From Escherichia phage BSBP01, in the sequence record PQ231202.1: a stretch of 54,030 nucleotides of DNA. One strand, given 5' to 3'. Position 1 is the first letter of the stretch. Every line of letters begins with the position of its first letter. A program made the position numbers and the translations under genes. Positions 42,760-54,030 of the stretch are shown one piece after another. The notes under the pieces are model-generated. The model saw only the letters and a program-made list of their open reading frames with translations, had not been told where the DNA came from and ran no database searches.

Positions 42760-43359
42760 TTATTTGTAACGTTCGGCCCCATGAGTGTGGGAACCAGTGA
42801 TTTCAACAGTTCCTGGCAAAGACACTTTCACACCACCATCACCAGTAATAGAGATGCTGTGTGAGTGTAAACCGTCAGGAATATGTGGCCTTTCATGCGG
42901 TCCAAGTTCAACACGACCAGTCGAGCCAAAGCCACCTTCACCACGACCAGTTGCATTCAAGCGGTCAACTTCAACGAAATGGTGTTGAGTAGCTTTACTA
43001 ACTTGCACCTGACAAATACGTTCACCTGGTTGAACCACAAAGGCTGTGTCCGAGTCGTTGTGCAACTTAACCATAAGATTGCCACGATAATCGGAGTCCA
43101 GAATTCCTGTGCAATTTGCCAAGCGGATGCCAGACTTAAAGCCATGACCAGAACGGCTATGTACTTTGAGTTCGTATCCAACTGGAATCTCGAATTGGAG
43201 GCCAGTATCGAAAACAGCAGAGCAGCCGGGATTGATAACAACAGTGCTATCGGAGATAGTGCAAACGTCAGCAGCAGCAGCGCCAGCAGTAGCGTACACA
43301 GGTAATTTCGCATTGGGATGCACTCGTTTAACTGCAACAACTTGGGTCATACAAGACAT
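42760..43359 (-). CDS. dut: dUTP pyrophosphatase with about 45-aa C-terminal extension
   Basis: All five dUTPase motifs (AGAAAADV, RSG, GILDSDYRG, RICQ, RGEGGFGSTG), then extension ending SITGDGGVKVSLPGTVEITGSHTHG. Confidence 0.85.
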   Translation of the reverse strand: MSCMTQVVAVKRVHPNAKLPVYATAGAAAADVCTISDSTVVINPGCSAVFDTGLQFEIPVGYELKVHSRSGHGFKSGIRLANCTGILDSDYRGNLMVKLHNDSDTAFVVQPGERICQVQVSKATQHHFVEVDRLNATGRGEGGFGSTGRVELGPHERPHIPDGLHSHSISITGDGGVKVSLPGTVEITGSHTHGAERYK

Positions 43360-43361
43360 GA

Positions 43362-44000
43362 TTATTTCTCTACTTGATAAGTTACGCGTTCAATCCAGTT
43401 GAACACTTTGAATACAGAATCACCCACTTTACCATCAACTAAATGTTCGTCCACTGTTACGCGGGTAGGTGTGTCTGGGAGGTTGATGTATCTGCGAGAA
43501 TCGCCCGTGAAATCAAAACCATCACGATGCAAACGCACAATGAGGACAAAATCATAAGCAGACTCAATGGCAACGACTTCATCACCAAAACCGCCATCGG
43601 GATAAATGACATTAATAATGCCACCCATACGCCCCGCGAGTTCTTCAACACGAGCAGCTTCAACCTTACCGAAGTAGTCTTGTCCGTAGCGAGGTTTATA
43701 CACATCTTCGCTAACGTGAATAAGAGCCTGACGAGGTGTTCTGCCACCAAGACCTGCAAGGGAGATAGAGTCTTTGAGGTCACGGTCCGAAGCGTAGTGA
43801 ATAAACTTGTCCACATCAACTTGAAAGTGTTTGGCAGTATGCTCATACAGTGCATCCTTAAACTGGTGTTTAATGAACTTGCGCTTACCGAGAAAGTATG
43901 GTTCCTCGGCAGCAACAATCTTATTTGCGATGGTGTCTTTACCGCAGCCAGGAGGTCCATTGAGAATAACAGCTAGTCGCTTAATCAAAACTTTCCTCAC
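43362..44000 (-). CDS. P-loop nucleotide or nucleoside kinase
   Basis: Walker A ILNGPPGCGKDT; start uncertain because the longest ORF overlaps the ligase 3' end. Confidence 0.55.
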   Translation of the reverse strand: MRKVLIKRLAVILNGPPGCGKDTIANKIVAAEEPYFLGKRKFIKHQFKDALYEHTAKHFQVDVDKFIHYASDRDLKDSISLAGLGGRTPRQALIHVSEDVYKPRYGQDYFGKVEAARVEELAGRMGGIINVIYPDGGFGDEVVAIESAYDFVLIVRLHRDGFDFTGDSRRYINLPDTPTRVTVDEHLVDGKVGDSVFKVFNWIERVTYQVEK

Positions 44001-44736
44001 TTTTGTCTGCACGTAAACGAACGAGTGACGGGAACCGGAACTTACCAGCTTCTGTCTTCTCACGATATCGAACTTGCATAATCGAACCAATTAGCTCGTG
44101 GCGATGTTCCCACAACCACTTACGAATCAATGTGTTAGATTCTGGAATACCGTGGTCTGCCAGACAATCTTTCACCATTGAACCAGCACTGCCGTAGTTC
44201 GAAGAGATAGAACCACACATACCTTTAAGAGCACCAGTACCTTCTTTCATACCAGTAATCTTCACATCGGCGTATTTATATGGTACAATCTTCCACCACT
44301 TACCTTTTGCATCACGGACAATGATACCTTCATGACCAAGCGCCAGATATTTATCCATCAATGCCTTAAGGTTTTCATTGCTTGGGTCTTTGCACCAGCC
44401 GATGTACAAGCGTGGGTCAACAGCACCATCACTCAACTCATACACATTGTCCTGGGTTAGTGGGATGCTTGGCGGGTCAATACGTCCGAGGATGCTAGAA
44501 GTCTCATTCCAACTATTACGGAATATCTCAGCATCTCTGAACTGTAAGTGGTCCAAATGAGGTAGGGGTTTGGAATTACGACTCCAGACACTACCTGATT
44601 TATTACGGATAGCTCGAATTCCGTCAATCTTGATGAAGAGTTCACAGCGCCCTTTGATACGGCAGTCTGGGTCTTCCCAATCATGTGCGTGAGCCTTTGT
44701 GTATCTTGTACCATCATCGAGGAGCTTAATAGACAT
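43981..44736 (-). CDS. Compact ATP-dependent DNA ligase
   Basis: Motif I KIDGIR near residue 34, EGIIVR, WWKIVPYK, and motif VI-like FRFPSLVRLRADK. Confidence 0.6.
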   Translation of the reverse strand: MSIKLLDDGTRYTKAHAHDWEDPDCRIKGRCELFIKIDGIRAIRNKSGSVWSRNSKPLPHLDHLQFRDAEIFRNSWNETSSILGRIDPPSIPLTQDNVYELSDGAVDPRLYIGWCKDPSNENLKALMDKYLALGHEGIIVRDAKGKWWKIVPYKYADVKITGMKEGTGALKGMCGSISSNYGSAGSMVKDCLADHGIPESNTLIRKWLWEHRHELIGSIMQVRYREKTEAGKFRFPSLVRLRADKSEESFD

Positions 44737-45250
44737 TAAGATTCTTTCTCAGGTATTCTCGAACAGCATTCTTGCGTCCGATTTTGGTTTTAGGAACTGG
44801 CTCTATTTTAGCAAGATTGCACTTGGCAATTTGCTCTTCGTCAGACAATTTGGCAAATGCAATACACTTCTTCTCAATGACTGCATCACGTCGTGATACA
44901 CCATATCGTTCCATGTATGTAATAATGCCGTGACAATCTTTACACAGCAATTCCAAATCTTCTGGCTGAACCAGTAAAAGGTTGTCCACAAAGCGGTGCA
45001 GGTCTTCCAATTTAAGGAGGCCACCAACTTGGACTTTGTGGTTTACTTCAATATCTTTGAGCTTATACAACTTCTTGCAATGGTAGCATTGAATGTGGAA
45101 GATTGGTTTCTTTGAGTCACCAACCTTCAATGCAATGCGTCGAGATTGTATTAGCGCGAGTTTGCTTGGGTGTTTAGACCAAACACTTCGAATAGCAGAT
45201 TGGAGCCAAGATACAAACTTGGCTTCCGTTCCACAATAACCGTAAGCCAT
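44726..45250 (-). mobile_element. HNH homing endonuclease (free-standing)
   Basis: CYHC ... NH ... CKDCH pattern; between exonuclease and ligase genes. Confidence 0.65.
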
Positions 45251-47214: not shown

Positions 47215-47460
47215 TTACAGTTGAGTGATAACTAGGGAGAAGTCCAGGTCGTTCATACAAGAGATTAACTCTTGCTCATTGACGACAGGACCAGATAAAG
47301 TTTTAATGAATGCCTGATACATTGAATTGGCAGCATAATCACTTCCAAATAATGTTCCAGCATTCTCGGTAATTACAGACAGCACAGCTTCCCGTGCGTC
47401 TTCACCTTTCTTGACAAAATGGAAATGGTCCACTTTGTCGAATATAGATACAACAACCAT
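47215..47460 (-). CDS. Hypothetical protein
   Basis: 81-aa ORF. Confidence 0.45.
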   Translation of the reverse strand: MVVVSIFDKVDHFHFVKKGEDAREAVLSVITENAGTLFGSDYAANSMYQAFIKTLSGPVVNEQELISCMNDLDFSLVITQL

Positions 47461-47954
47461 TAGTGAATCTCTGCGTAGTTATCGCCAAATTGTACATCAC
47501 ATGCACAATCACGATTGAGTTTAAGTTCTTTGTTGGTCCGGTCCATTGCTTCATTAAGCAAGTCCGTCCACAAATCACGGAAACCTTTCTTAACTTGGAG
47601 AATCAATTCATCATGGAATTGTCCAGACAGAAGCGGGTCACAGCCCCAACGTTCATTGCAAATTGCAATAATGTTGTTACACCAAATATCAAACACATAT
47701 GCACCAGTACCCTGACACAATGTGGAGAAGCGGTCTTTCTCGGTGCGCAATGAATACCAGAATTTGTTTACTGGATTCTGTTGCCACATCTGACCATCAA
47801 CTGTGATAACTTTGGTGTTTGCAGCAATCTCTTTAATAGACCAGTTCAAGTCCCAATATGCTTTATGCAGTCGTGCAGCAGTAGTCTGGTCACAGCCAGC
47901 AGAACGAGCTACAGTTGGCACACCAGCACCATATTGACCATTTACATTGTTCAC
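47460..47954 (-). CDS. DNA polymerase, C-terminal fragment (rest of motif B and motif C)
   Basis: Begins GQYGAG completing motif B; contains QFHDELIL motif C; ORF opens with GTG immediately after an in-frame stop. Confidence 0.75.
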   Translation of the reverse strand: MNNVNGQYGAGVPTVARSAGCDQTTAARLHKAYWDLNWSIKEIAANTKVITVDGQMWQQNPVNKFWYSLRTEKDRFSTLCQGTGAYVFDIWCNNIIAICNERWGCDPLLSGQFHDELILQVKKGFRDLWTDLLNEAMDRTNKELKLNRDCACDVQFGDNYAEIH

Positions 47955-48083
47955 ATGAAGTCGTTAATTTCATGCCGGAACGAATCCAGCTGCATGTCAC
48001 CATGCAGAGCAGACTATATCATCACCGACCTATGTCGGGTCCCCCGTTTCCACCCACTTGGGTGTACGCCTTACGGCTAGTCG

Positions 48084-48521
48084 TTACACGTTCATGAAAG
48101 CATCTTGACAATCGTGATGAAGCTGGTGGCAACGCTTACAAAGCAACTCAAAGTTGCTCCTAACATTATTGCTTCTATCATGGTCACGATGATGAATCAC
48201 ACGTTCCGTATAGTGTACGTTCAGCAGATTCTTACCACACCTTTCACAACACTTAAGTTCTTCAAGCATTTCCTTTCTGGCACGTACATATTCACCTTTG
48301 CCGGAAGAGTAGGTTTTGCTTTCTGGACCTTTTGCGTGTTCAAAGTTTCCAGTGCCAGCACCACAGTTTATACCTTTCTTAATACACTGATTAACATAAG
48401 AACGGTCTCTGCACTCTTGCGCTGCAATATCAGAACAAGGTTTGCACTTGGAACTTCTTGGTCCTGTGGGAATGAACATCTCTCCACAAGAACATTTCTT
48501 AGGTTGGTAATTTCTTTTCAT
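48084..48521 (-). mobile_element. HNH homing endonuclease inserted inside the DNA polymerase gene
   Basis: Cys-rich zinc motifs and HHRDHD..N..CKRCHQLHH; lies between the two polymerase fragments. Confidence 0.8.
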
Positions 48522-48590
48522 GCTTCGCTCGGTATTGTCTCTGCGGCAGAGAGTTCCACCGAATTAAAGGGATTTTACATGCGCATCAAT

Positions 48591-50048
48591 TTACGCATAG
48601 TTTGTAGTCTTAAACATTGGACGTTGTTTACACTTCTTAATCCCGTCCTTGTGGTCCTGAGATTCCTGTTCGGTAATAAATCCACCAATTACGCCGATTG
48701 CAAGGTGAGCATCATAGTCTGGTGCCAACTGCTTCTTAACGTATTCAGGGTCATACATCCATTGGAAGTGGTGTTTACAGCGGTCTTCCAGTGAACACAA
48801 GTCAGAGCCTAACTGTTCGTAGTCTTCGCGCCACGCTTCCAACATTGAACGCAGTTCTTCACCGCCAAATACACGAATAGAAGGGAGGTTAACAAGTTCG
48901 CGGTGTTTAAGACGTAAAGTATTGGTAAGGCCACCACATCGTGCAGTAAGGTATCCGTCTTCATCGACGTCGCGAAGGAAACCGTTAACAACAGAGAGAC
49001 GGTGTTTATATACGCCCATCCCAATAAGATGTTGAATACCAGAGTCGGGGTTTCTTTCCGCCAGCTTATGCAAGCTCGGACATATTTCAGGATTGCCATC
49101 TTCATCCTTCACAGTGATTTGTGGAATCTGGCGAGTTTCACCTGTTTCCTTATTACGGTCGAACTTAAAGGTTTCTGGTTCCCAACCTAGGCTGAACAAC
49201 CAATCTTTGATTTGAACATGTGAACCAGCATTAGGCTTCTTGTAACCTTTAAGAACCTTGATAGCCAGGTCTGGGTCTTTCCAGTCCAAACCGTTCGCAT
49301 CACAAATAGCCTTCCACTTAATTCCAGTGGCAGACAGTTGCCCGTTCATCTTGTGGCATTTAGCTGGACGGGTCTTGATAACATACTCCGGAACACGAGG
49401 CATTGATGCCTCCAATGCGTCCGTCTTCTCTTTAATCATTGGTTCCAGCTTGGCCTTAAATGCCAATGCCTTCTCAATGTTCAGCTTCCAGCGAGTGCGT
49501 TGTTGAATAACTTGTTGACGAGCTTTTGTCATCAGATATTCAACGAAGCGTTTAACTTCGCCAGGAGATTTATAAATCTTCAAGAGTTGAATGTATTGCT
49601 GTTCCCACAGCTTCAACTGAATCTTGCAGTCTTCCATCACACGATGGTTGTACTCTTCTTGAGTTTGATTTTCCCAATCTTCAATGACTGGTTTTGGCAC
49701 ACCAAACTCTTCGCCGTAACCTTCTAAGCCGTGCTTAACACGACGAGGTTGCAGATACCAACTAATAAACAAAGTATCAATAAACACACACTTGGAGGTA
49801 TCGTATCCAAGGAATATGAGCGCTTCATTATCAAAGCACATACTATTGTGCATGACCAGCGTAGGTCCGGTATCCAAGAATGCTTGTACAGATTTTCTGT
49901 CAGTCCACTCTATTACATTCTCTTCCCTGGTTTGTATATCTATAAAACCAATATTGTGCAGACGAGGTGCGGACTGTTGCTTCATTTGCTCAAGCAAGCC
50001 TGTAGTCTCTATATCTGCGGCATACATATTATTCCAAGGGTATAACAT
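48591..50048 (-). CDS. DNA polymerase (family A), N-terminal fragment with 3'-5' exonuclease domain
   Basis: Exo motif AADIETTG; ends ...RPMFKTTNYA inside motif B. Confidence 0.8.
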   Translation of the reverse strand: MLYPWNNMYAADIETTGLLEQMKQQSAPRLHNIGFIDIQTREENVIEWTDRKSVQAFLDTGPTLVMHNSMCFDNEALIFLGYDTSKCVFIDTLFISWYLQPRRVKHGLEGYGEEFGVPKPVIEDWENQTQEEYNHRVMEDCKIQLKLWEQQYIQLLKIYKSPGEVKRFVEYLMTKARQQVIQQRTRWKLNIEKALAFKAKLEPMIKEKTDALEASMPRVPEYVIKTRPAKCHKMNGQLSATGIKWKAICDANGLDWKDPDLAIKVLKGYKKPNAGSHVQIKDWLFSLGWEPETFKFDRNKETGETRQIPQITVKDEDGNPEICPSLHKLAERNPDSGIQHLIGMGVYKHRLSVVNGFLRDVDEDGYLTARCGGLTNTLRLKHRELVNLPSIRVFGGEELRSMLEAWREDYEQLGSDLCSLEDRCKHHFQWMYDPEYVKKQLAPDYDAHLAIGVIGGFITEQESQDHKDGIKKCKQRPMFKTTNYA

Positions 50049-50055
50049 AATTACC

Positions 50056-50463
50056 TCAGTATTTTGGAGTATTCTTCATGTGCCAATTTTCGTGACACTG
50101 CTTACAAAGCCATCTTACCATCAAGGGTTTCGAATAGTCGTCGTGGTGTGCCTCCAGCTTCTTATCTTGAGTACACATCATACATCTGTTTGGTTTAACT
50201 ATCCTTCCAAACTTAAGTGCAGCATTTACCAAACTTCTTGCACGCTCCCTCTCAGGCCGCACTTCTCGGTATCTTTTGCACCTGGCATTGTTGAGTTCCC
50301 GCTCTCGTTCAATATTACGAACAGGCTTCTCTGGTAATGGTGCAGATTTGTACTCTGCACGGTACTTTAAGCTTTTGCACAACTTGCACCAAGATGAACT
50401 CTTGTGAAAGCCTGCTTCATCTTTAGGTACTTTGCACTTAGGACAAATTTTCATCATTTCCAA
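50056..50463 (-). mobile_element. HNH-type endonuclease (free-standing)
   Basis: CPKC, CKLC and C-terminal HHDDYSKPLMVRWLCKQCHENWH. Confidence 0.55.
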
Positions 50464-50518
50464 TTATTGTAAAGTGAGGGCTACGCTGGTGGGCGAACCA
50501 TGCAGCGCAGCAGCTCTG

Positions 50519-52282
50519 TTATTGATGTGGACCGTTCTTCTTAGTAAGCTGAACAATCTCTTTGGTTTCGAACAGCGAGTCATCCCAAGAACGTTGAATA
50601 ATTCGACCAGATTCGGTGTCATAATACGTCTTGAAGCCTTCTGTTTTACCACTCTTACGAGCTTTGATGGAACGAATAATAGAACAGTTTGGGTCAACTG
50701 CCTGGCTATTACGCTCAAAGCCGAACATACCATGAGAATATTTAGCAGCAGCACGTGAGCCAGTAAAGTCTGACTTCTTGATACGTCCACCATCTTCATG
50801 AGGTCGCTGACCTTTTGCAACAGGGTTAAGGTGCGACAGAATATTTACATGGAACTGATATTGGTCTGCCAGCTTAGTAATATCTGCATACAGCTTACCC
50901 AAGAAGTCGTTCTTCTCTGAGGCAGAAATCCCTTCCGATAAGTAGGTTAAGTTATCAAGGACAAACATATCAATGTCTGGTCCAATCTGACGAAGAATCG
51001 TCTTTAACCCATCCCAGGTTTCATAAGGGTCTTCTCCAGCTTGCTTGCGGTCCCAAATCTCCATGTTACGAAGCATCTTCGCAGCAGTTTGACGGAACTT
51101 AGCTTCATCATATCGAGGGTCTTCACGAGTAAACGCAGGTTCCCAATATGGCAAGTTGTCATTAAGGCCAGCCATTCGGCGCAATGTTTCTGTAGGAGTT
51201 TCCTCCATGTATGCAGTAAACACTCCCCAATCGTGCTTGGTAATGTTGTGATGCACAATCTGACGGGACAGCGTAGTTTTACCACCACCTTCTGCACCAC
51301 CGATTGTAATAACTTCGGCTCGACGTTGACCAAACATTAAGTCGGTTAACTTTGGCCAAGGATAGTCCACACCCTGTTCAACCTCGTCATCAAGCTCTTC
51401 CATAAGAAGTTCTTTGTTGACAAGTGCTGTAGGCAGAGGACGAGCCGCACGGAACACAACAGCAGATTGAGTAGCTTTGAGCAAGCCACGCTTCAAACAA
51501 TCGTTGGCATCGTTAGCTGGAAGTGTTGCAATCATTGCACCAGGCAACAATCGACACGCTTCTTTTGCAGCTTTACGTCCAGGTTCGTCATCATCAAATA
51601 CGATAACAACCTGTTCCCAACGTTGCTTAATTTCTTCTGCAACTGGTGACAAACATTTGTGTACGGAATCACTCCCGTCACTCAAACTAATTACAGCAAA
51701 ATCCAAATCTTCATATGCACCACCACGGTTCATAGTCTTGAGGATTTGACGCAATGCGATACAGTCTTCTTCACCTTCAGTGATGAACAATGTCTTACCG
51801 CCAATTGCTTTTGCAGCCAACCAGTTGTAGGGTTCGTTGCCTTGTGTATCGCCAACAGACCACATAACTTTCTTGTTCAGAAGTTTAATCTTCCAACGAA
51901 CAAGTTTGCCATTTTTGGTGTAGCCATGTGCCAGAGCATTTGGAGTCTTCCCATCATACTCTGAATACAGAAGTCGAACACCAGCAGCTTTCCAGAATTC
52001 TGGTTCGATGCTGCGATGGGTTAAATCAAACGGAGGACAAGCAGTGATTTCATCAACTTCTTCCTGAATTTCTTCTGGAGTCTTGACTTTAATCTCTGGA
52101 ATGTTCTCCGGATTATTGCCATAAGGATTTGGTACTAGAACGCCACACGCAAAGCAGTAACCAGAGAAGTTCTTATTACCAGCTTCATCGACATTCAACC
52201 AAACCTGTAAAGACTTGCCAGATGTGGATTTACAGTCTGGTACATCGTGCTTAATCTTAGCCACACATTGCTTGACGTTCAT
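50519..52282 (-). CDS. Bifunctional DNA primase-helicase (T7 gp4-like)
   Basis: N-terminal zinc finger, TOPRIM FITEGEEDCIAL and VFDDDEPG, helicase P-loop GGAEGGGKTT. Confidence 0.85.
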   Translation of the reverse strand: MNVKQCVAKIKHDVPDCKSTSGKSLQVWLNVDEAGNKNFSGYCFACGVLVPNPYGNNPENIPEIKVKTPEEIQEEVDEITACPPFDLTHRSIEPEFWKAAGVRLLYSEYDGKTPNALAHGYTKNGKLVRWKIKLLNKKVMWSVGDTQGNEPYNWLAAKAIGGKTLFITEGEEDCIALRQILKTMNRGGAYEDLDFAVISLSDGSDSVHKCLSPVAEEIKQRWEQVVIVFDDDEPGRKAAKEACRLLPGAMIATLPANDANDCLKRGLLKATQSAVVFRAARPLPTALVNKELLMEELDDEVEQGVDYPWPKLTDLMFGQRRAEVITIGGAEGGGKTTLSRQIVHHNITKHDWGVFTAYMEETPTETLRRMAGLNDNLPYWEPAFTREDPRYDEAKFRQTAAKMLRNMEIWDRKQAGEDPYETWDGLKTILRQIGPDIDMFVLDNLTYLSEGISASEKNDFLGKLYADITKLADQYQFHVNILSHLNPVAKGQRPHEDGGRIKKSDFTGSRAAAKYSHGMFGFERNSQAVDPNCSIIRSIKARKSGKTEGFKTYYDTESGRIIQRSWDDSLFETKEIVQLTKKNGPHQ

Positions 52283-52286
52283 TTAT

Positions 52287-52967
52287 TTATTCCTGGTTGG
52301 TCAGAGCCTTCCAACAAATTGGGAATAGTTCTGACATGATTTTATTCACTTCTTCCGCAAACAAGCGAACTTCATATTGCGCATGTTCGGAGGAACGTTG
52401 ATTATACATAGATGCCCAGCCATAAAGTGAGCCAGTCCAAATCCATTCAGTCATCATGGATTGTGGAAGAACCATGCGAGCTTGCTCTGGGGCAATCCCC
52501 AAACCAATTAACGTTTCATACTCTGCGATGCAAGCCTTGTTATAGCTTTCCATGCGATAATGAATATCGTCAGCAAAATCTTGTGGCAACGGTTGTGCAG
52601 TCTGAGTCATCAACTTTTCAGGACGACCAAATACAACACCTGGAACAAAGCATTCAATAGAGATTGCTTCGCCATCTTTGTAACGACGGCTAACCTCATT
52701 CCAACTAAAGCCAGTTTGATGTTTGCCAAGCTGACGTGCAATGAAGATTGGAGCTTTGCAACGCAATGTTACCTGTGCATGACGGAACGGCGTAATGTGT
52801 TTATGCTTTGCAAGAAACTCAATCAGCTTCTCGTCACGTAAAGATATTTCATGTGACTCTGCACCATAAGAAACTCGTGCAGCATTAACAGTTGTGAGGT
52901 CGCTGCCCATTGAATCTACTAATGTTGCGGTTATTTGTGGCTTAACCATTATTTGCGTATTCTCCAT
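52287..52967 (-). CDS. thyX: Flavin-dependent thymidylate synthase ThyX-like
   Basis: Aligns by eye along its length to ThyX; RHR position reads KHQ. Confidence 0.7.
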   Translation of the reverse strand: MENTQIMVKPQITATLVDSMGSDLTTVNAARVSYGAESHEISLRDEKLIEFLAKHKHITPFRHAQVTLRCKAPIFIARQLGKHQTGFSWNEVSRRYKDGEAISIECFVPGVVFGRPEKLMTQTAQPLPQDFADDIHYRMESYNKACIAEYETLIGLGIAPEQARMVLPQSMMTEWIWTGSLYGWASMYNQRSSEHAQYEVRLFAEEVNKIMSELFPICWKALTNQE

Positions 52968-53394
52968 GATATATTTTTCTTGCTACCTTGATAGCAGCCT
53001 CGGCATCTTCGAGATTGTCAAAGCTGCCAACGTATATTCGTTTACCATCTCCAACACGAATCCTCGCCACAAACTTTCCGCGAGCATCTTTATGCACACC
53101 TTTTACCCCAGATGTGTTGTTAGAGTTAATTCTTCTGTTGTGACAGTTCTGCAACTGTGTTGCTTCTCGCAGGTTGGATGGAACATCGTTAAAAGTGTTT
53201 CCATCAATATGGTCAACCTTATCTACAATCTTGCCAGTATTCATGTAGTACACAAGTACGTGCCTGCAAACACTGTAGTGCTTGCCGCCAAGGTATAGTG
53301 CTGTTTTGGCGTACCTTCCACTGCAAGTCCAATTTATTTGGTCAAACCTTTTTGCAGCCGTGTCTAACACAAATTTCTTGGACAGCCTATTCAA
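52942..53394 (-). mobile_element. HNH endonuclease with AP2-type DNA-binding domain
   Basis: HIDGN..N HNH core and GVKGVHKDARGKFVARIRVGDGKRIYVGSF AP2-like segment. Confidence 0.65.
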
Positions 53395-53453
53395 TGTTTG
53401 CTCTCCGGTTCATATGGTGGGAGATAAATTAGCTCCGCACCATGATAATGGTA

Positions 53454-53684
53454 TTATTTTAATGACGCCTGAATTTCTTTCATAGACGCATTTAGTACAG
53501 AACGCTTTTCATATTCGCGTTGATTGTACGTGTTTGTCAGTGCTTCCGCAGCTTCTATTGACAAGATTGCAAAACCGCCAAAGGCATTGCGAACTTCTTC
53601 AATATCCATGTGCAGGACTTCACTTGTGATTTGGCTGGCTATTACGGCCTTATAAATCTCTTCGGCAATTTCAGCAGTTTTCAT
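53454..53684 (-). CDS. Hypothetical protein
   Basis: 76-aa ORF, first gene after the junction non-coding region. Confidence 0.4.
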   Translation of the reverse strand: MKTAEIAEEIYKAVIASQITSEVLHMDIEEVRNAFGGFAILSIEAAEALTNTYNQREYEKRSVLNASMKEIQASLK

Positions 53685-53880
53685 GTTTCTCTCCAGTTAA
53701 AATTTAAGTAAGTGCCCTGAGTATTACAAAACACTTATTAAATTTGATTCGAACCGCCCAAGTGAATCAGCCTTGTTTATGGGGACCATCGGGGAAAAGT
53801 ATAAACCCGCTTAATGCTCGCATCATGTTTGAACATTAAGAACCCTCGACTTGCATATTTCATGTGTATAGGAACATAGT

Positions 53881-53897
53881 CTGGATTTTGAATCCAG
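53881..53897. other. Perfect hairpin (7-bp stem CTGGATT/AATCCAG) adjacent to the terminal repeat
   Basis: ctggattttgaatccag. Confidence 0.3.
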
Positions 53898-53903
53898 CTA
53901 ACT

Positions 53904-54030
53904 TCGGGATGAGGAGTAACCCAAATAAAAGCCTGAACTTTCTTTCTGCACAACACAATCAGCGCAACTAAGCCGTATCGCTACGGTATGCCAGACGCTC
54001 TCTTGAGCCTTTTGAACAGAGGCATAACTG
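53904..54030. repeat. Second copy of the 127-bp terminal repeat
   Basis: Identical to 1-127. Confidence 0.9.

Follow-up and report, generated by a model that had tools for sequence, protein, structure and literature searches.

A KHQ variant of the ThyX signature in Escherichia phage BSBP01 represents a large, mostly phage-borne subfamily of probably active thymidylate synthases

Flavin-dependent thymidylate synthase (FDTS), or ThyX, is the textbook case of a second way to make an essential DNA precursor, and it is an antibacterial drug target. An Arg-His-Arg (RHR) signature serves to define the family, even to filter data sets. In the 54,030-nucleotide stretch of Escherichia phage BSBP01 (sequence record PQ231202.1; hereafter the window), which is nearly the whole genome of a Chaseviridae (Carltongylesvirus) myophage, one open reading frame (ORF) aligns with ThyX while reading Lys-His-Gln (KHQ) in place of this signature. 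An initial annotation, made from the sequence alone, took the change as a possible sign of altered substrate handling, for example in a modified-pyrimidine pathway, or of an inactive enzyme. Does the gene encode a broken enzyme, a re-purposed one, or a working thymidylate synthase? The thyX product is most likely a working enzyme, neither broken nor re-purposed: an active synthase of deoxythymidine monophosphate (dTMP) in which the phosphate-binding arginines would have moved to new positions, a reading given a probability of about 0.75.

Homology, motifs and extent of the subfamily

The likeness to ThyX along the length of the ORF, at first seen by eye, was borne out when the ORF was aligned to the Thy1 family profile. 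The Pfam profile (PF02511) matched with an E-value of 5.5e-42 and 144.1 bits against a cut-off of 24.8, and residues 15-216 cover profile positions 1-190 of 191, that is, end to end (HMMER). The NCBIfam equivalog TIGR02170 'thyX' scored 128.9 bits, above its curated cut-off of 87.9, and PHROG 85 'thymidylate synthase' gave an E-value of 3.2e-71. The closest solved structures are ThyX of Thermus thermophilus and Thermotoga maritima (6j61, 1kq4; E ~3e-29, HMMER). An AlphaFold2 model of the monomer, built from a 95-sequence alignment, reached a mean predicted local distance difference test (pLDDT) of 93.8 and a predicted template-modelling score (pTM) of 0.89; it superposed on T. maritima ThyX chains with template-modelling (TM) scores of 0.75-0.83 and E ~1e-18 (Foldseek), the top listed matches in the Protein Data Bank (PDB) all being T. 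maritima ThyX. By profile and fold, the ORF belongs to the ThyX/Thy1 homologous family. With canonical enzymes (T. maritima TM0449, M. tuberculosis Rv2754c, H. pylori, PBCV-1 A674R) it shares the fold (TM ~0.8), the length, the order of secondary structures and 32-35% identity over ~210 aligned positions in structural alignments. The chemistry is presumably shared as well, running from methylenetetrahydrofolate (CH2-H4folate) to flavin N5 and then to C5 of deoxyuridine monophosphate (dUMP), followed by reduction. Canonical ThyX is a homotetramer, each active site being built by three subunits. The query differs from these enzymes by KHQX8S, by Arg at G/A/Q89 and at E58, and by Tyr at R165 (T. 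maritima numbering, used for all canonical positions).

In the HMMER alignment, T. maritima 'ARQWFRHRIA-SYNELSGRY' faces the query 'ARQLGKHQTGFSWNEVSRRY', so that K82-H83-Q84 stand at R78-H79-R80. The initial annotation had thus read this triplet correctly, as it had the conserved serine and the R-Y after it, which are kept as S93, R95 and Y96 (Table 1). Since no RHR was found anywhere in the query protein, the motif is not merely shifted, and this candidate explanation was rejected. One residue has been added after KHQ, S93 follows after eight residues, and the query accordingly reads KHQX8S instead of the RHRX7S by which ThyX has been defined (Myllykallio 2002). Between S93 and R95, R94 stands where canonical ThyX has G/A/Q89, an arginine gained in the subfamily described below. 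The dUMP-binding set R74, Q75, E86, S88, R90, Y91, R147 and R174 is present in the query as R78, Q79, E91, S93, R95, Y96, R164 and R191, and the flavin-ring and folate set H53, S30, N85 and E144 as H57, S33, N90 and E161; K82 would be the basic residue that canonical enzymes place opposite flavin N1. Among the ligands of the phosphates and ribityl chain of flavin adenine dinucleotide (FAD), namely R78-H79-R80, R165 and E58, only the histidine is kept (H83), the other positions being K82, Q84, Y182 and R62.

The same pattern of retention and change was found when 112 variant sequences were compared with 13 canonical ones. H53 (110 of 112), S30 (109), Q75 (110), E86 (110), S88 (110), R90 (109) and Y91 (110), together with E144, R147 and R174 (112 each), are essentially invariant in both groups; R74 is kept in 96 variants and N85 in 87, with Ser in the remainder. 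The signature positions are different. R78, found in 13/13 canonical sequences, is Lys in 102 variants and Arg in 9; H79, likewise 13/13, is His in 98 and Ser or Tyr in the others; and R80, again 13/13, is replaced by Gln (57), Lys (17), Thr (10) or Val (7) and is still Arg in only 5. At position 89 Arg is absent from all 13 canonical sequences and present in 103/112 variants. E58 (13/13 canonical) has become Ala, Arg, Gly or Ser, while R165 (Arg in 8 and His in 3 of the 13) is mostly Ala, Tyr or Leu. Judged from these alignments, the changes cluster on the phosphate-binding residues and spare those that determine the base. Roles in binding dUMP (uracil, deoxyribose and phosphate), isoalloxazine and folate have been assigned by structures to the conserved residues (PMC6514825, PMC3498832, PMC11940539). 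The RHR triplet makes hydrogen bonds to the FAD phosphates and ribityl chain, its first Arg also touching the isoalloxazine ring and dUMP, and the equivalent of R165 in M. tuberculosis (R190) is a ligand of the FAD phosphates and ribityl chain (PMC6514825). In addition, dUMP is hydrogen-bonded by R78, R80, S88 and R90, and the Gln side chain at position 89 of PBCV-1 ThyX has been seen inside the pocket for the dUMP phosphate (PMC3498832).

The variant is widespread. A HMMER scan of 1.84 billion representatives of 50%-identity clusters gave 7627 matches, 430 with E < 1e-30; among the best 150 of the 7627, almost none had RHR, the motifs being KHQ, KHK, KHT, KHV, RS-x or KS-x, nearly always followed by 'SRRY'. 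A ThyX relative was found in 1643 GenBank phage records. In an even sample of 60 of these the motif was read in 23, and the remainder was classed by similarity to those; the 23 comprised 12 variant and 11 canonical sequences, cleanly split along the similarity ranking, which puts the variant share of ThyX-bearing phage records very roughly at ~35-40%. Variant phages at >=35% identity to the query include Moazamivirus SeKF_80, Kuravirus 172-1, Paundecimvirus TC6, Vibrio BA6, phiK7A1, Barbavirus, roseophage CRP-403, Streptomyces Karimac, Bacillus Blastoid and Schitoviridae Kc283, and ThyX of Streptomyces Circinus is of variant type at 31%. Canonical proteins (RHR with S-G/A/Q-R-Y), all at <=34% identity, occur in RcJoli, Bixzunavirus LinStu, S-ESS1, phiCB2047-B, P-SSM3, R4, Nishikigoi, Tanis, Melnitz, phiCP26F and BS46. 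The 13 canonical sequences grouped in one clade of a neighbour-joining tree, and none of the 112 variants fell within it.

Within the subfamily, the proteins of Kuravirus 172-1, Moazamivirus SeKF_80, Paundecimvirus TC6, Vibrio BA6 and others are annotated as ThyX and combine K-(H/Y)-x with SRRY at 35-57% identity to the query; the third motif position is Lys, Ala or Val in other phage groups, compared with Gln in the query, and some carry long insertions inside the motif. Most members also have Arg at the equivalent of Tm169, in place of which the query has R62. Closest are the sister phages of the Chaseviridae (ST32 gp38, SKA49, flopper, Yersinia PYps23T, Erwinia vB_EamM-Y2), all with KHQ...SRRY and with ThyX identities to the query of up to 99% (85% for PYps23T, 71% for Y2). 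As in the query phage, their thyX lies upstream of the primase/helicase gene. It is already annotated as 'thymidylate synthase', marked 'no experimental evidence' in the ST32 entry. At the DNA level, positions 50000-54030 of the window (4 kb searched) are 97% identical to Escherichia phages ST32, SKA49 and flopper.

Cellular genomes contribute little. One genome per species was scanned for 185,579 prokaryotic species by pattern and tblastn, starting from a 14-sequence alignment, with patterns that required KHQ and WNExSRR and therefore undercounted other variants; 42 loci were recovered, nearly all on contigs of metagenome-assembled genomes (MAGs), many of them phage-sized and a few of them large. 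The KHQ form is thus essentially phage-borne, and a mainly cellular subfamily was rejected on the same counts. Taken over the aligned sequences, K-H-x ... S-R-R-Y replaces R-H-R ... S-x-R-Y in a large, mostly phage-borne ThyX subfamily. A metagenomic protein, P0199, has canonical E58, R165 and RHR together with the variant 'SRRY' and may link the two ThyX types as an evolutionary intermediate.

Proposed relocation of arginines and rival explanations

An active enzyme of this kind would convert dUMP to dTMP with methylenetetrahydrofolate, flavin and NAD(P)H. K82 would take over the job of R78, placing a positive charge at N1/C2=O of the reduced flavin and a hydrogen bond on dUMP. R78 faces N1/C2=O of FADH-, and in flavoproteins 'a basic residue' commonly fills such a role (PMC11940539, 2025), so that Lys at position 78 may be regarded as a conservative change. 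The charge lost at R80 (Q84) and R165 (Y182), ligands of the FAD pyrophosphate and/or the dUMP phosphate, would be supplied from new positions. R94 of 'SRRY', in the mobile active-site loop between the dUMP-phosphate binders S88 and R90, could substitute for R80, and R62 of 'PFRH' could supply the second charge, for which most other members would use Arg at the Tm169 equivalent; across the subfamily, the charge on the FAD pyrophosphate would come from position 58, position 169 or Lys80. E58 is presumably an FAD/phosphate contact, as is R165. The presumed role of E144 in the folate site is that suggested by PDB entries of E144R mutants with folate.

The distribution of arginines is in line with such an exchange. 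Across the 125 sequences, 98 lack R80 and have R89, 13 have R80 without R89, 5 have both and 9 neither. Loss of R80 is strongly associated with gain of R89; because the two groups are separate clades, the association may reflect few evolutionary events. Arg in the Tm58 column (26 sequences, including R62 of the query) and Arg in the Tm169 column (69) never occur together, and 9 of the 17 variant sequences with Arg at neither position have Lys at 80. Position 169 (N/H169) is one helical turn from the lost R165.

Could the gene simply be broken, or misread? Two of the three textbook signature residues are changed in the query, the first arginine having been described as important for flavin and dUMP, and at first sight this might point to an inactive relic or pseudo-enzyme, or to a mistake in sequencing or assembly. 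Both are highly improbable. KH(Q/A/S) occupies the motif in 120/120 nearest homologues (68-96% identity, from many independent assemblies), KHQ itself recurs in ST32 and in three further phage families, and the codons for K, H and Q each vary synonymously among relatives (AAA/AAG, CAT/CAC, CAA/CAG), upon which the error was rejected. Decay was rejected on the ratio of non-synonymous to synonymous substitution rates (dN/dS) of thyX, 0.08-0.17 against seven relatives, with dS up to ~2.7 and reaching saturation; loci L066 and L068, in which codon mapping was off-frame, had been left out. The ORF is full length and intact, its AlphaFold2 model is confident, and the active-site residues, near-invariant in the 112 members, are invariant across hundreds of 50%-identity clusters. 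Some variant-type homologues carry inteins at two active-site positions, and inteins typically occupy conserved functional sites of proteins needed by their host element. Together with strong purifying selection and a place in the replication operon, this contradicts the inactive enzyme that the initial annotation had considered. Its other suggestion, a synthase releasing a C5-modified nucleotide or acting on another nucleotide substrate to feed DNA modification (for instance 5-hydroxymethyl-dUMP, formed by water trapping the exocyclic methylene), found no positive support and is very unlikely. The altered signature could be cited for it, as could the deoxynucleoside monophosphate (dNMP) kinase that the phage encodes, phages with non-canonical nucleotides also needing such a kinase. 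The residues that read the uracil and bind the nucleotide are unchanged, with R174 and R147 kept in 112/112 variants, Y91 in 110 and R90 in 109, and with S88, E86 and Q75 kept. The window ORFs scanned with Pfam, NCBIfam and PHROGs, which did not include every small ORF, showed no hydroxymethylase, hydroxymethyl-deoxyuridine kinase, glycosyl or amino-acid transferase, dTTPase or comparable gene, and the ST32 annotation lists no thymidine-hypermodification genes (5-hydroxymethyl-deoxyuridine (5-hmdU) DNA kinase, aGPT-Pplase or similar transferases). We know of no reported thymine modification in the many unrelated phage families that carry the subfamily. Known thymidine hypermodification starts from a ThyA-type dUMP hydroxymethylase rather than from ThyX (PMC8989533). 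DNA of Yersinia phage PYps23T, whose ThyX (P0033) is 85% identical to the query and has KHQ, is cut by NdeI and MbiI in the pattern expected in silico, terminal repeats aside (PMC8762354); this weighs weakly against a bulky thymine modification and is compatible with plain 5-hmdU.

It is less far-fetched, though still unlikely, that the protein methylates dUMP at C5 as usual and handles its cofactor differently, with FAD as a loose co-substrate, a preference for flavin mononucleotide (FMN) or another flavin, or an altered reductant or binding order. The changed residues, R78K and R80Q (PMC6514825) with E58R and R165Y, have been described as FAD/phosphate contacts; position 80 varies widely across the subfamily (Q/K/T/V/H/M), as though it were no longer a ligand; and the equivalent of H79 is Ser or Tyr in 13/112 members. 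Against this, contacts of the flavin ring (K/R78, S30, E86, S88, H53, Y91) and the folate/NADPH-site residues H53 and E144 are conserved, a compensating Arg at 89, 58 or 169 argues that the same phosphates are still bound, and the sequence says nothing directly about flavin identity. A broader proposal, also doubtful, would make K-H-x/SRRY proteins a biochemically distinct, phage-specific class of the ThyX fold, in which the rebuilt phosphate pocket alters what is bound or released, through a different or loosely held flavin, another reductant or binding order or, less likely, release of a modified nucleotide. If so, about one in three of the 'thymidylate synthase ThyX' annotations in phages would conceal another activity or another regulation. 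The altered substrate handling of the initial annotation thus stands in a narrow sense, in that phosphate-binding arginines appear to be supplied from elsewhere, and finds no support in the wider one, the uracil- and nucleotide-reading residues being unchanged.

Several points weigh against an ordinary dTMP synthase with moved arginines. The classical motif that defines ThyX, RHRX7S, is absent from the query. We infer the relocation from alignment and from published descriptions of residues, and phylogeny confounds the covariation signals, which may go back to few ancient events. R80, R165, E58 and the arginine at R78, that is, three to four FAD-phosphate ligands, have changed at once, and flavin affinity, flavin type or kinetics could therefore differ. 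The E. coli host has ThyA, so gene content provides no argument that the phage gene is essential. The searchable literature yielded no study of a K-H-x/SRRY member, whether biochemical, genetic or structural. A 2004 report on Trichodesmium by Liu and Yang reportedly speaks, in its title, of distinctive ThyX motifs and an intein, and may be partial prior art; subfamily members here likewise have inteins inside the motif.

If the dTMP synthase reading holds, the gene's function is probably ordinary, and an exotic DNA-modification pathway is no longer needed for this phage. The interest then lies in the variation itself. For enzymologists, the variant branch would be a natural 'mutagenesis' series on the roles of R78, R80, R165 and E58, and annotators and authors of evolutionary surveys should be cautious, because filters on the motif miss much viral ThyX diversity. 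A subfamily differing in flavin or product would have a larger impact; present evidence favours the ordinary function.

Replication operon and nucleotide supply

The features discussed are collected in Table 1. The order in ST32 is thyX (gp38), primase/helicase (gp39) and DNA polymerase (gp40), and the primase/helicase gene of the query phage begins 4 nt past the thyX stop, which places thyX in the replication operon. Elsewhere in the window, a gene for dUTP diphosphatase (dUTPase) adjoins that of the dNMP kinase homologue, whose ST32 counterpart gp46 is labelled 'hypothetical protein'. The dUTPase would make dUMP, the substrate of ThyX, and the dNMP kinase could carry dTMP to dTDP, a dUTP-dUMP-dTMP-dTDP route from phage genes that fits a role in thymidylate supply. 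With these two enzymes, ThyX could provide more dTTP for replication without recourse to the ThyA and dihydrofolate reductase of the host.

Table 1. Position of thyX, its motifs and other features in the window
Feature	Positions	Strand	Remarks
dUTP diphosphatase (dut)	42760..43359	minus	NF001862 150.6 bits, cut-off 103; Pfam dUTPase E 1.8e-22
dNMP kinase homologue	43362..44090	minus	start codon uncertain; PHROG 139 E 1.6e-38; weak P-loop NTPase Pfam match
HNH gene	44726..45250		replication module
DNA polymerase, second ORF	47460..47954	minus	ST32 polymerase residues 479-644
Probable group I intron	47937..48594	minus	~655 bp between the polymerase ORFs
HNH endonuclease ORF in probable intron	48084..48521
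DNA polymerase, first ORF	48591..50048	minus	ST32 polymerase residues 1-485
Endonuclease-like ORF	50056..50463	minus	PHROG 2340 'endonuclease' E 1.6e-32; Cys-rich, HNH-like motif at end
T7-type DNA primase/helicase gene	50519..52282	minus	ORF list, ST32 annotation
ThyX-homologue ORF	52287..52967	minus	226 aa; ORF list
Likely true thyX coding sequence	52287..52949	minus	220 aa; ATG overlaps stop of upstream HNH gene
S93-R94-R95-Y96 ('SRRY')	52680..52691	minus	S93, R95, Y96 = canonical S88, R90, Y91
K82-H83-Q84	52716..52724	minus	canonical R78-H79-R80; codons AAA CAT CAA; HMMER to 1kq4 and 6j61, MAFFT column mapping
P60-F61-R62-H63 ('PFRH')	52779..52790	minus	canonical 'PFEH'; R62 in place of canonical-invariant E58
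462-bp insertion with HNH-AP2 homing-endonuclease ORF	52935..53396 (ORF 52942..53394)	minus	HNH_3 E 7.7e-9, AP2 E 1.2e-5 (Pfam)

Mobile elements in the module and in related genes

The 5' end of thyX has been remodelled by the HNH-AP2 insertion, which is missing from ST32 and SKA49 (blastn against ST32) and falls precisely on the ancestral thyX start codon. The native start and its ribosome-binding site are displaced, and the insertion supplies a new 5' end, which gives the query protein an N-terminus different from that of the sister phages. Translation of thyX probably starts at the ATG at 52949 instead of 52967, and homologues P0004 and P0005 are also 220 aa long. The overlap of this ATG with the stop codon of the endonuclease gene suggests translational coupling. 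SA91KD and Pel53 appear to share the insertion, judging from a coverage pattern of 88% versus 77% and from an 'HNH endonuclease' annotation. The latter record, GenBank PP952070.1 'Staphylococcus phage Pel53' (host Staphylococcus hyicus), has 88.8% DNA identity to this Escherichia/Yersinia phage group, and its host label looks doubtful.

The replication module of the phage holds at least four such endonuclease elements. The DNA polymerase gene is split into two ORFs. The stretch between them, missing from ST32, encodes an HNH endonuclease and aligns with the full length of RF00028, the group I intron model of Rfam, at a score below the gathering score (E 2.5e-6); this stretch is probably a self-splicing intron that carries a homing endonuclease. 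The endonuclease-like ORF between the primase/helicase and DNA polymerase genes belongs to a ~425-bp insertion that ST32 does not have.

Inserts also occur within homologous ThyX proteins. In P0124, P0201 and P0230, an HNH-type intein lies inside the signature motif (...KHQxGF|C...HN|(S/C)WNE...), and in P0247 the C-terminal intein junction alone is visible at this site. P0192 and P0224 have an intein just past the folate-stacking histidine (...HxH(M/W)|C...GN|TPF...), which looks to be of the LAGLIDADG type. An in-frame insert of ~130-150 aa, resembling an HNH-type endonuclease domain and without intein-like junctions, is found in the variable loop past the 'KQGS' motif in P0121, P0160, P0185, P0190 and P0212. 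Finally, in P0241 (465 aa, from a metagenome in the European Nucleotide Archive, ENA) the variant ThyX domain has 'LVGIETNPGP' at either side. This sequence resembles the 2A 'self-cleaving' peptides of eukaryotic viruses, which suggests that P0241 ThyX is made as part of a polyprotein, in a virus of eukaryotes or in a eukaryotic host.

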